Below, one piece after another: positions 10,151 through 21,314 of a DNA stretch of 64,000 bases (position 1 is the stretch's first letter; every line of letters starts with the position of its first letter). The DNA is from Escherichia phage Killian. The notes below the pieces were generated by a model, which saw only the letters and a program-made list of their open reading frames with translations, ran no database searches and was not told the DNA's origin. The translations under genes were made by a program, and so were the position numbers. Location: sequence record OQ446694.1, one strand, 5' to 3'.

Positions 10151-10207
10151 GTTATTTTCCTCTAATTATTTTCTACTCCAAGGCCGCATGAATACACGGC
10201 CGATAAA

Positions 10208-10423
10208 TTAATCGTCGCAGTCGACGATTAATTCCCAGAACTCTTCTACAGTATAAGTTTCAGTATCATTTTCAATACAGAAACGTTCATTACTGTTATT
10301 TGCTAAAGTAGCGTTAACTGTCATTTTCTCGCTAGTGCTTTTAAGAGGTGAAATACGAATTAACTGATCACCATTATCTAAACAGAAAATTTCACCGACC
10401 TTTACATCTTTAAAAATTTTCAT
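10208..10423 (-). CDS. Hypothetical protein (71 aa)
   Basis: ORF track, ATG start; ndd.x-type ORF. Confidence 0.5.
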   Translation of the reverse strand: MKIFKDVKVGEIFCLDNGDQLIRISPLKSTSEKMTVNATLANNSNERFCIENDTETYTVEEFWELIVDCDD

Positions 10424-10431
10424 AATTCACC

Positions 10432-10542
10432 TCAAGGAGTATAAAATCCAAACGCAGTTGTTGACCATCCCATCCAGTATGGGAAATTTGCACCAATGTA
10501 AAACATAAGAATATAAAACCAACCACTCAGCAAATTCATCAT
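10432..10542 (-). CDS. Hydrophobic micro-protein (36 aa)
   Basis: Hand translation MMNLLSGWFYILMFYIGANFPYWMGW...; overlaps neighbouring stop codon. Confidence 0.35.
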   Translation of the reverse strand: MMNLLSGWFYILMFYIGANFPYWMGWSTTAFGFYTP

Positions 10543-10736
10543 TTTACACCATTCCAAATTGTTTCAACCACAGATTTTAAGCCATTTTGATGAATGTCCA
10601 TTCCGACAACCGCCATCAAATAGATTCCAACCACAACTGAACCCAAGGCGAAAATCAGCATGAAAATGAATAAAGCTGGAAAAATATTATCGAAAAACCA
10701 TTCCATAAATGTAAAAGCACTACGTTTACGCTTCAT
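10539..10736 (-). CDS. Small membrane protein (65 aa from ATG with SD GAGGA)
   Basis: ORF track 10539..10757 trimmed to the internal ATG with SD; hydrophobic core FPALFIFMLIFALGSVVVGIYLMAVVG. Confidence 0.45.
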   Translation of the reverse strand: MKRKRSAFTFMEWFFDNIFPALFIFMLIFALGSVVVGIYLMAVVGMDIHQNGLKSVVETIWNGVK

Positions 10737-10743
10737 ATTTTCC

Positions 10744-10857
10744 TCACATAAATCCAAAGTAAGCGTTTAATACATCAATCATTAAAACGATTGGGAATAT
10801 ACTCAAAACTACTAGTATTATAACTACATTCCATATAGCTTTAACAATCTTTTTCAT
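10744..10857 (-). CDS. Hydrophobic micro-protein (37 aa)
   Basis: ORF track 10744..10992 trimmed: the upstream part contains a promoter; ATG at 10857 has SD GGAGG; MKKIVKAIWNVVIILVVLSIFPIVLMIDVL... Confidence 0.4.
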   Translation of the reverse strand: MKKIVKAIWNVVIILVVLSIFPIVLMIDVLNAYFGFM

Positions 10858-10885
10858 TTTCTGTTCCTCCGTAGTTGATAGGGTA

Positions 10886-10917
10886 ATAATACCACAGAAG
10901 AACAGTCTTGTAAACAA
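10886..10917 (-). promoter_or_regulatory. Early sigma70-type promoter
   Basis: Minus strand GTTTAC-18 nt-TGgTATTAT. Confidence 0.5.
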
Positions 10918-11182
10918 CTTTTTTAAAAATATTCGTAATAAATGTGAATACCAATCACTACTGCCGAAACTTGCGCAACCCACCACGCACACGCAATAAG
11001 TACAGAATTCAAAATTTTCATAATAACCTCATTACAAAAGTAAATGTTAAACAAATTAATGGAATACTAATTAACCAAACAAAACACCACCATAATGAAC
11101 TCATAGTTCAATCTCAGCGATTTTCATTTCATTACTATTAATAGCCGCTTTAAGACTATCTGAAAGAATTACATTCCAGTGG

Positions 11183-11365
11183 TCATTCATATGGACCATT
11201 AACTAAGCGTGTAATTTCTTCGGGAGTTGAAAAATAAGGCGTATCAGACTCCCAGTGCGATAGTCCCAAGCGAGTATAAATCATACCTTCATCATCGCTA
11301 GAATATTCAACTGACACAAACTCATCAGTTATTTTATGTTTAGCGTAATAAAATTTAAATTTCAT
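11183..11365 (-). CDS. Hypothetical protein (60 aa)
   Basis: ORF track trimmed from TTG to the first ATG. Confidence 0.4.
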   Translation of the reverse strand: MKFKFYYAKHKITDEFVSVEYSSDDEGMIYTRLGLSHWESDTPYFSTPEEITRLVNGPYE

Positions 11366-11370
11366 TTTAC

Positions 11371-11577
11371 TCAATAATCCGCTAAAAGATCGACAATTGC
11401 ATCACGAAGACACTTATTCGCAATACGTTTAAGAGCAATTTCAGTTTCTGGAGCATTTTGAATAATCATTGAATTCAATTCAGCCTCAGCAAACTGAAGT
11501 TCTTTAACTAATTCAGCTTTATATTTTCCTTGCCCTTTCTTAGCTTTTGCTCGTTTTAATTCAGCTGTAGTAAACAT
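11371..11577 (-). CDS. Hypothetical protein (68 aa)
   Basis: ORF track trimmed from TTG to ATG with SD GGAG; MFTTAELKRAKAKKGQGKYKAEL... Confidence 0.5.
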   Translation of the reverse strand: MFTTAELKRAKAKKGQGKYKAELVKELQFAEAELNSMIIQNAPETEIALKRIANKCLRDAIVDLLADY

Positions 11578-11611: not shown

Positions 11612-11641
11612 ATAGTACCACAGTCCTTGTGGTATGTAAAC
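11612..11641 (-). promoter_or_regulatory. Early sigma70-type promoter with conserved leader
   Basis: Minus strand GTTTAC-18 nt-TGgTACTAT; followed by a 47-bp leader identical to 38765-38811. Confidence 0.55.
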
Positions 11642-20756: not shown

Positions 20757-21257
20757 TTATCTCATTTCAATAAAATCTATAAGTTCAGCATGGGATTTAC
20801 GGAACATTACTTGATGTCCGCCAATGATAACTTGGTCATCTGGCACTTCGTATACAGCAAGATAAAATCCTTTAGAAGATAATTCTTCACGCTCTTCTCG
20901 TGTGAACCATCTCATCATATCATATTCACTAGCGAAAGCAAAATGATAAAGAGCTATAAACCATCCTGGAATATGATATTCTACTCCAACATAATCTTTC
21001 TTGAACTTAGTATTAATTACTATATTAGCGTTTTTAACTAATAGTTTATCTTCATGTGGTACAGGAATTCTTTTATTATCATCGCTATGATGCATAAAAT
21101 TAGGTCTACTATAACCTACACGTAATAGCCACTCTTCGCTCCATGAATCTATTATACTCCTGTACGGCGTTATTTGAACACAAAGATTTCGACGTATTGT
21201 TATAGCATCTTCACAATCAAGAATACTAAACGATGATTCAACACGATAAATTTTCAT
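20757..21257 (-). CDS. Hypothetical protein (166 aa)
   Basis: ORF track trimmed from TTG to ATG with SD GAGGA; promoter lies just upstream. Confidence 0.5.
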   Translation of the reverse strand: MKIYRVESSFSILDCEDAITIRRNLCVQITPYRSIIDSWSEEWLLRVGYSRPNFMHHSDDNKRIPVPHEDKLLVKNANIVINTKFKKDYVGVEYHIPGWFIALYHFAFASEYDMMRWFTREEREELSSKGFYLAVYEVPDDQVIIGGHQVMFRKSHAELIDFIEMR

Positions 21258-21284
21258 TTTATTATCCTCAGTAGCTATGGTGTT

Positions 21285-21314
21285 ATAATACCACAACTAA
21301 CCGAGGAAGTAAAC
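21285..21314 (-). promoter_or_regulatory. Early sigma70-type promoter
   Basis: Minus strand GTTTAC-18 nt-TGgTATTAT. Confidence 0.5.

Follow-up and report, generated by a model that had tools for sequence, protein, structure and literature searches.

Does the interval between ndd and denB of T4-like phages merely contain a handful of tiny hydrophobic open reading frames (ORFs), or do these encode proteins that serve the phage, and if so, in what capacity? An earlier note on this DNA, a 64,000-nucleotide window from Escherichia phage Killian (record OQ446694.1), had listed four such ORFs of 36, 65, 37 and 32 amino acids; all are present on the minus strand at exactly those sizes. The window belongs to Tequatrovirus, and the ~1.5 kb around the ORFs share 97–99% identity with hundreds of Tequatrovirus genomes and ~95% with T4. 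In T4, the locus is flanked by ndd (nucleoid disruption protein) and denB (endonuclease IV), and all genes there lie on the minus strand. The ORFs are the T4 genes ndd.2, ndd.3, ndd.4 and ndd.5, and a fifth gene, ndd.6, adjoins them beyond the range that the note had drawn. The existence of ndd.2–ndd.6 was already known, as they have long been annotated in T4, a point that the earlier note missed. The products are 92–98% identical to their T4 counterparts, with the same order, strand and flanks, and synteny with T4 and its relatives places ndd.2 between ndd.3 and ndd.1. The ndd.4 frame is read here from MKK, giving 37 residues, vs. 42 in the T4 annotation. The range first proposed for the cluster, 10432–10992, stops too early: 10992 is where a mechanical 82-residue GTG ORF starts, and it truncates ndd.5.

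Features of the ndd–denB interval, in coordinates of the window.
Feature	Coordinates	Strand	Description	Family or basis
ndd.2	10432..10542	-	36 aa	phrog_4135, E = 1.7e-24, residues 1-36; T4 annotation
ndd.3	10539..10736	-	65 aa	phrog_2401, E = 6e-30; Pfam DUF7248 (PF23906)
ndd.4	10744..10857	-	37 aa	phrog_3098, E = 3.1e-21
15-bp hairpin	10861..10905	-	5' arm 10905..10891; 3' arm 10875..10861	
ndd.4 early (sigma-70-type) promoter	10886..10914	-	TTTACA-17-TATTAT, extended -10 TG	10/12 consensus matches
ndd.5	10923..11021	-	32 aa, single hydrophobic helix	phrog_5011, E = 3.9e-26
ndd.6	11018..11104	-	28 aa	phrog_8851, E = 3.2e-17
PST ORF268 homolog	11101..11365	-	predicted soluble	phrog_2390
PST ORF269 homolog	11371..11577	-	68 aa; predicted soluble	phrog_4535
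Second early-type promoter	11612..11640	-	downstream of denB	9/12 consensus matches with TG

A PHROG scan assigned every Ndd product, over its full length, to a family of its own. Ndd.3 also matched the DUF7248 profile (73.4 bits vs. a cutoff of 27, residues 5–63). PF26889 is listed on all close Ndd.4 homologs; our Pfam scan, for which the copy used lacked the PF26889 model, returned no match for Ndd.2, Ndd.4, Ndd.5 or Ndd.6. A sequence search of the PDB yielded no solved relative of any Ndd product. Public labels that describe these products as “outer membrane”, “periplasmic” or “naphthalene dioxygenase” found no support in the records examined. Two further frames were rejected as genes: the 82-residue GTG ORF (10744..10992) covers the ndd.4 promoter, a 37-residue ORF (10841..10954) that some records carry as a CDS overlies it, and neither has a coding pattern.

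We examined selection on the micro-genes in 19 close loci, using the distribution of variable sites over codon positions and pN/pS, with shifted frames as controls. Variable sites at positions 1/2/3 numbered 1/1/10 in ndd.5 (pN/pS 0.06), 5/4/24 in ndd.3 (0.09), 3/0/2 in ndd.6 (0.11, on few sites) and 6/3/14 in ndd.2 (0.14); for comparison, the soluble neighbor ndd.1 gave 3/6/22 and 0.11. Shifted frames of the micro-genes had pN/pS values from about 0.5 to more than 6. The ndd.4 gene hardly varies at synonymous sites (1 of 38 third positions vs. 70 of 208 in its neighbors; p = 2e-5), and its constraint within the genus may be partly at the nucleotide level or may reflect a recent sweep.

The spread of the families was assessed on two scales. 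Among phage records, tblastn found Ndd.2 in 518, Ndd.3 in 524, Ndd.4 in 595, Ndd.5 in 493 (nearly all at 90% identity or higher) and Ndd.6 in 593. A distant set of 34 loci, in most of which Ndd itself is only 45–66% identical, was then covered by iterating a profile search over every small ORF. Ndd.4 had members in 25 of these loci, Ndd.3 in 14, Ndd.2 in 10 and Ndd.6 in 9; ndd.5 was absent from all 34 and is confined to Tequatrovirus. Ndd.4 is thus the most widely conserved of the five, and in one distant locus (L032) it is the sole gene of the denB–ndd interval. Two of the distant relatives represent other genera, VR26 (Gaprivervirus) and IME281 (Dhakavirus), and the VR26 record itself carries the annotation “similar to T4 Ndd.4”. 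Ndd.4, Ndd.3, Ndd.2 and Ndd.6 keep their family-specific motifs in Gaprivervirus, Dhakavirus and other genera; Ndd.4 and Ndd.3 are conserved in phages whose hosts include Escherichia and Enterobacter, among others. Because the families occur in many different combinations across the 34 distant loci, they would be better regarded as independent modules than as subunits of one complex. The five micro-genes are genuine and under selection, and four of the five have a long history in the Tevenvirinae.

These data bear directly on the least charitable reading of the interval: that its ORFs are by-products, the region mattering as recombination or regulatory DNA and its T-rich strand giving rise to hydrophobic frames. 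Indeed, the ndd.4/ndd.5 area has been described as a cassette bounded by promoter/stem-loop (PeSL) elements, with exchange between T4 and PST proposed at this very place (PMC4122927), and the substitution pattern of ndd.4 is odd. Furthermore, a T4 proteome study detected no protein from ndd.2–ndd.6 (PMC9697503, Table S2). That absence is weak evidence, however, because four of the five products yield no conventional tryptic peptide; only Ndd.3 does (SVVETIWNGVK). On the other side, the frames are open in nearly all 19 close loci and have matches in hundreds of records, pN/pS is 0.06–0.14 as opposed to at least 0.5 in the other frames, and amino-acid motifs are kept across genera despite diverged DNA. 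The by-product reading is largely refuted by the selection data, and we give it very little credence.

The annotation of one gene requires correction. In the T4 reference (NC_000866), the 65-residue gene is split into ndd.2a (40 residues) and ndd.3 (26 residues). Our alignment attributes the split to a difference of one nucleotide just after the start codon, which shifts the frame after codon 2. The intact frame occurs in 17 of the 19 close loci, namely the T4 record MT984581 and 16 other close relatives; because it is uninterrupted in all of these, the comparison identifies the 65-residue frame as the real ndd.3.

How are such small genes expressed? The earlier note had credited the ORFs with Shine-Dalgarno sequences, and these are clear for ndd.3 (GAGGA), ndd.4 (GGAGG) and ndd.5 (GAGG); the claim stands less firmly for ndd.2, whose site is weak, as is that of ndd.6. 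Stop/start overlaps of the form ATGA join ndd.2 to the ndd.3 stop, ndd.5 to the ndd.6 stop and ndd.6 to the stop of the ORF upstream. Because their ATGs overlap an upstream stop in this way, ndd.2 and ndd.6 are probably translated by coupling. One ORF was also said to have its own early promoter, and our consensus scan bears this out: an early-type site precedes ndd.4, with an A-rich tract upstream of it. The element recurs ahead of ndd.4 in other genera, and its position defines a putative start site. A “promoter” annotated in phage Lutter maps inside ndd.6 rather than at this site and is not usable as support. Early expression, also claimed, agrees with published data, as the T4 transcripts of ndd.2–ndd.6 belong to the early class (PMC9697503, Table S2).

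Compared to T4, two extra soluble ORFs lie here between ndd.6 and denB, homologs of PST ORF268 and ORF269, both of which T4 lacks; the window thus carries the PST-type ORF269 and ORF268 together with ndd.6, ndd.5 and ndd.4. The ORF268 homolog is split in the window by a one-nucleotide insertion into frames of 60 and 32 residues. Elsewhere it has 87 residues; this frame was read in locus L005, and a 264-nucleotide CDS is annotated in nine relatives. The second early-type promoter probably drives ORF269, ORF268, ndd.6 and ndd.5, with read-through into ndd.4.

The junction between the proximal promoter and ndd.4 holds a further element, a hairpin of 15 bp whose 5' arm coincides with the -35/-10 spacer of the promoter and whose 3' arm contains the ndd.4 Shine-Dalgarno sequence (GGAGG, 10870..10866). 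The calculated energy is -20.5 kcal/mol, with z = -3.4 on 73 nucleotides and -5.4 on the promoter-to-ATG segment. The hairpin is kept in all 19 close loci, the terminal pair alone being lost in two of them, and most substitutions within the helix preserve pairing (G-U to G-C, G-C to G-U, A-U to G-U). Analogous hairpins of other sequence occur in Gaprivervirus, Dhakavirus and another lineage (z = -4 to -6). Across genera, both partners have changed in two of the pairs, and 95% of cells are paired vs. at most 55% in slid controls; with respect to the -35 hexamer, the Tequatrovirus hairpin is in another register than that of the other lineages. We considered whether pairing between spacer and Shine-Dalgarno sequence is a general trait of early promoters and rejected the idea, since it is strong at only 2 of 13 promoter–gene junctions in the window, the other being that before a motB.2-like ORF at ~21313.

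Because the 5' arm would lie upstream of the proximal start site, only read-through transcripts should be able to form the hairpin. In this respect the arrangement resembles the inhibitory structures of T4 e, soc, 49 and I-TevI (PMC3014915): the Shine-Dalgarno sequence of ndd.4 is inside a stable helix, and the 5' arm appears to be upstream of the start site of the proximal promoter. It differs from them in that this promoter is of the early sigma-70 type, not late. The gene is not among the examples of TIR-sequestering structures given in that review (PMC3014915). With the PeSL cassettes (PMC4122927), the locus shares an A/T-rich tract, the TTTACW-N17-TAYWAT motif, a Shine-Dalgarno sequence and start codon, and a hyperplastic region; the published stem-loop, however, sits just upstream of the promoter, whereas here the spacer of the promoter and the Shine-Dalgarno sequence form the two sides of the helix.

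We then considered the products themselves. Each ORF had been proposed to encode one hydrophobic helix. By hydropathy, this is sound for the 65-, 37- and 32-residue products: the best 17-residue Kyte-Doolittle means are 2.2–3.4 for Ndd.3, Ndd.4, Ndd.5 and Ndd.6. The case is weaker for the 36-residue Ndd.2 (1.41), which is weakly hydrophobic, lacks charged residues, is one-third aromatic (12 of 36) and has a conserved motif, G-x-N-x-P-Y-W-[LM]-G. Ndd.3 starts with basic residues (MKRKR) and has a ~28-residue hydrophobic stretch and the C-terminal motif GLKSVV[ED]xIWNG; its AF2 model (pLDDT 78) comprises a short helix (5–17) and a long one (19–64). Ndd.4 begins with MKKxxKAIWN (MKKxLKAIWN across genera) and continues with a transmembrane helix having an internal IFP, then MID and an aromatic tail (MID...FxYFF). 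The Ndd.6 motif is W-x-C-x-[IV]-W...IP-x-IC, and its single Arg is C-terminal. The N-termini of Ndd.3 and Ndd.4 are rich in Lys and Arg, Ndd.5 has one N-terminal Lys, and acidic residues follow the helix. Because of this charge distribution, the positive-inside rule predicts an N-in/C-out topology in the host inner membrane for Ndd.3, Ndd.4 and Ndd.5. Judging from their sequences, the products of ndd.2–ndd.6 probably all sit in that membrane.

Could such peptides simply damage the membrane? As toxins of the type I or holin/antiholin kind, they would depolarize it, for host shut-off or for the timing of lysis. In size and hydrophobicity they do resemble the TisB/Hok-type peptides. Many T4 immediate-early products are also lethal to the host when cloned (PMC6071114). 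However, the micro-genes have early promoters and lie away from the lysis genes, and the conserved motifs outside the helix (GLKSVVExIWNG, GxNxPYWLG and MID...FxYFF) are family-specific and point to specific contacts, not to unspecific damage of the membrane. Neither an antisense RNA nor an Rfam family at E ≤ 1 was found, and a consensus scan revealed no convincing plus-strand promoter within the genes. A holin/antiholin assignment likewise found no footing in the locus: promoters and transcripts are early, and the neighbors are ndd and denB. Depolarization early in infection would presumably also harm the phage's own energy supply. We therefore consider the toxin reading improbable.

The earlier note had suggested another role: that the peptides block superinfecting phages or neutralize a membrane-associated host defense. 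Early expression and the predicted membrane location are compatible with this idea, host-interaction genes (stp, ac, ndd, denB and rIIB) are nearby, and the hyperplastic, cassette-like character of the region is what would be expected of arms-race genes (PMC4122927). Like the T4 superinfection-exclusion proteins Imm and Sp and the neighboring small membrane proteins Ac and gp52.1, the Ndd peptides are early, small, non-essential and predicted (or, for some of that group, known) to be in the envelope, yet they have no sequence relationship to any of the four. In the PHROG scan, no relationship to Imm or Sp appeared, only the Ndd families being matched at E ≤ 0.01. A single match emerged from the defense libraries, that of Ndd.4 to KwaA (PADLOC, E = 0.0085), and we read it as a compositional match of a transmembrane segment; beyond it, no known defense or anti-defense profile was matched, which speaks against an anti-defense role.

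The Ndd.3 tail offers a second possible connection to exclusion. An HMMER search with Ndd.3 gave five matches in all. One of these, a 6,939-residue protein, was rejected as compositional, the alignment being on the hydrophobic stretch. Another was a repeat protein of 820 residues, aligned on the C-terminal motif, which may be a tape-measure protein; the predicted periplasmic tail of Ndd.3 (NGLKSVVETIWNGVK) resembles its 11-residue repeat, WNGIKSVVxTV. Such a likeness would fit mimicry of an ejection protein, but it is a weak lead, with 18 bits for the DUF7248 profile vs. a cutoff of 27.

Published genetic screens in T4 provide further perspective. CRISPRi-ART scored all of the genes “Not Fit”, with no fitness effect (PMC11879866), and transposon mutagenesis (HIDEN-SEQ) classed all of them as “Non-essential” (10.1101/2025.11.20.689424). 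The hits that the latter study reported were elsewhere: rIIA/rIIB with RexAB, dmd with RnlAB, 57B/acb1 with CBASS, 30.3/adfN with DarTG1 and, as a single hit, tk.4 with DarTG2; in minimal medium, the strongest depletion was that of vs (10.1101/2025.11.20.689424). None of ndd.2–ndd.6 is among the reported hits with these five systems or in minimal medium, and in one of the study's comparison tables ndd.2a–ndd.6 have q = 1 (10.1101/2025.11.20.689424). The transposon data thus argue mildly against a role against RexAB, RnlAB, CBASS or DarTG. Moreover, the purifying selection on Ndd.4 and Ndd.3 across hosts fits a conserved target better than a strain-specific defense. On balance, exclusion or anti-defense strikes us as the main alternative, though rather unlikely, and we favor a reading in which the peptides modulate the host envelope over a narrow anti-defense role.

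Our full-text literature searches for ndd.2–ndd.6 found no functional study; the genes are named there only as unknowns. A phenotype has nonetheless been mapped to the region. The classical deletion sa-delta-9, which runs from 52.1 through denB, is viable; its phage yield is about half that of the wild type, and it has lost virtually all of the stimulation of phospholipid synthesis seen after infection (PMC6071114). The interval encodes several predicted membrane proteins, and an rII deletion that partly overlaps sa-delta-9 also loses the stimulation of phosphatidylglycerol (PMC6071114). The 3.4-kb deletion to which the lipid phenotype maps takes out ac, 52.1, stp, ndd, ndd.1 and denB as well, and further mutations were present in the strains under comparison (PMC6071114). 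This phenotype is the only mapped candidate for the micro-genes.

Taken together, the evidence leads us to propose, at somewhat less than even confidence, that ndd.2–ndd.6 encode five early, independent, non-essential single-pass proteins of the inner membrane that modulate the physiology of the host envelope. They would be transcribed from the early sigma-70-type promoters that follow denB and immediately precede ndd.4, respectively, and translated from their own Shine-Dalgarno sequences (ndd.3, ndd.4 and ndd.5) or by ATGA stop–start coupling (ndd.2 and ndd.6). Ndd.3, Ndd.4 and Ndd.5 would insert N-in/C-out into the host inner membrane, so that the GLKSVVExIWNG motif of Ndd.3 and the Ndd.4 tail, acidic and aromatic, would face the periplasm. 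Each peptide alone could then act as a “monkey wrench” that binds and tunes a conserved enterobacterial inner-membrane component, so that envelope physiology would be adjusted early in infection; the stimulation of phospholipid synthesis lost in sa-delta-9 is a candidate for the phenotype. Conserved host targets are favored because purifying selection acts on Ndd.4 and Ndd.3 across phages that infect several enterobacterial genera. The bacterial small inner-membrane regulators AcrZ, MgrB, MgtS and CydX offer a parallel: they too have 30–65 residues and a single helix, and binding to larger membrane proteins is what we propose for the Ndd peptides. The latter, however, are phage-encoded and lack homology to these regulators, and the comparison is one of analogy only. 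Bolder versions, in which the micro-proteins are the T4 factors that reprogram host phospholipid synthesis early in infection, or the Ndd.3 tail mimics a tape-measure/ejection-protein repeat and thereby closes the inner membrane to competing phages, seem to us long shots, as does the separate idea that ndd.4 is the first early-promoter case of the promoter-dependent masking of Shine-Dalgarno sequences in T4.

T4 is the best-studied lytic phage, and about half of its genes have no known function. The genes ndd.2–ndd.6 do not amount to a novel type of system. For annotation, reading ndd.2a and ndd.3 as one gene and recording the masking hairpin before ndd.4 are useful details. Because the micro-genes are under selection, because four of them are ancient in the Tevenvirinae, and because they appear to be independent modules, they are reasonable targets for small-protein methods. 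The analysis also shortens the list of candidates behind phage-directed phospholipid synthesis, a long-known phenotype that still lacks an explanation.

The gene ndd.3, one of the hydrophobic micro-genes between ndd and denB, is annotated in two pieces (ndd.2a and ndd.3) in the T4 reference NC_000866, and this split is traceable to one nucleotide. Compared with MT984581, another T4 record, the reference differs by 1 nt directly after the ndd.3 start codon; in MT984581 and in nearly all relatives, ndd.3 is a single 65-aa gene.

We also found a natural fusion of two of the micro-proteins. Protein P0006 of Shigella phage Sf25 joins Ndd.4 residues 1 to about 30 in frame to Ndd.3 residues of about 34–65; the 62-aa product arose via a deletion, and both Pfam families are present on it. 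The conserved tail of Ndd.3 (NGLKSVVETIWNGVK) resembles the repeat of P0017, an 820-aa repeat protein from the representative library: the repeat is 11 residues long (WNGIKSVVxTV), and the tail corresponds to 1.5 copies of it. This similarity is weak and falls below the Pfam cutoff. We read P0017 as a likely phage tape-measure protein, a name that is ours and not tool-assigned.

Features discussed in the text, with window coordinates (homologous positions where another phage is named)
Feature	Coordinates	Strand	Remark
Hairpin, G+C-rich 8-bp stem	10175-10195		Intergenic, before ndd Shine-Dalgarno
Hairpin, perfect 12-bp palindrome	10206-10233		Overlaps ndd.1 stop codon
Conserved Ndd.3 tail	10539-10590		
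Nucleotide diversity trough	~10660-10850		ndd.4 and 5' part of ndd.3
1-nt difference between T4 records	10730-10736		
ndd.4 early promoter and 15-bp hairpin	10861-10914	-	
ndd.6 stop lost in phage G8	~11018-11030		
PST ORF268 homologue (phrog_2390)	11101-11365		Split by 1 extra nucleotide near 11186-11190
Second early promoter with hairpin	~21255-21313	-	-23.7 kcal/mol, z = -5.9

Between ndd.6 and denB, the split homologue of phage PST ORF268 reads NGPYE and then a stop where the intact frame has NGHMNDHW.... That intact frame, of 87 aa, can be read in phage G8, and a 264-nt CDS is annotated in nine relatives. The split in the window reflects either genuine pseudogenization or a sequencing error.

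Separately, the ndd.6 stop codon of phage G8 has been lost through an indel, and the frame continues for 83 aa, spanning ndd.5 and the promoter. This loss is isolated to G8 among the 19 close loci.

Both hairpins at the ndd.1/ndd junction lack a T-run behind them; these structures may act as signals for processing or for stability.

Across the 19 close phages, nucleotide diversity shows a trough that covers ndd.4 and the 5' part of ndd.3. Variable third positions number 1 of 38 in ndd.4 vs. 70 of 208 in its neighbors (Fisher p = 2e-5), and the few changes present are conservative amino-acid replacements. Either a recent sweep or an exchange of cassettes could account for such a trough, as could constraint at the nucleotide level.

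Spacer/Shine-Dalgarno pairing was found at two early promoters. The second promoter precedes a 166-aa ORF, placed like T4 motB.2, directly downstream of a 227-aa ORF that we take, from its position and length, to be dexA. At ndd.4, the Shine-Dalgarno sequence pairs with the -35/-10 spacer of the gene's own early promoter; this design recurs, with compensatory changes, upstream of ndd.4 in other genera. The hairpin would mask ndd.4 translation on read-through transcripts only.
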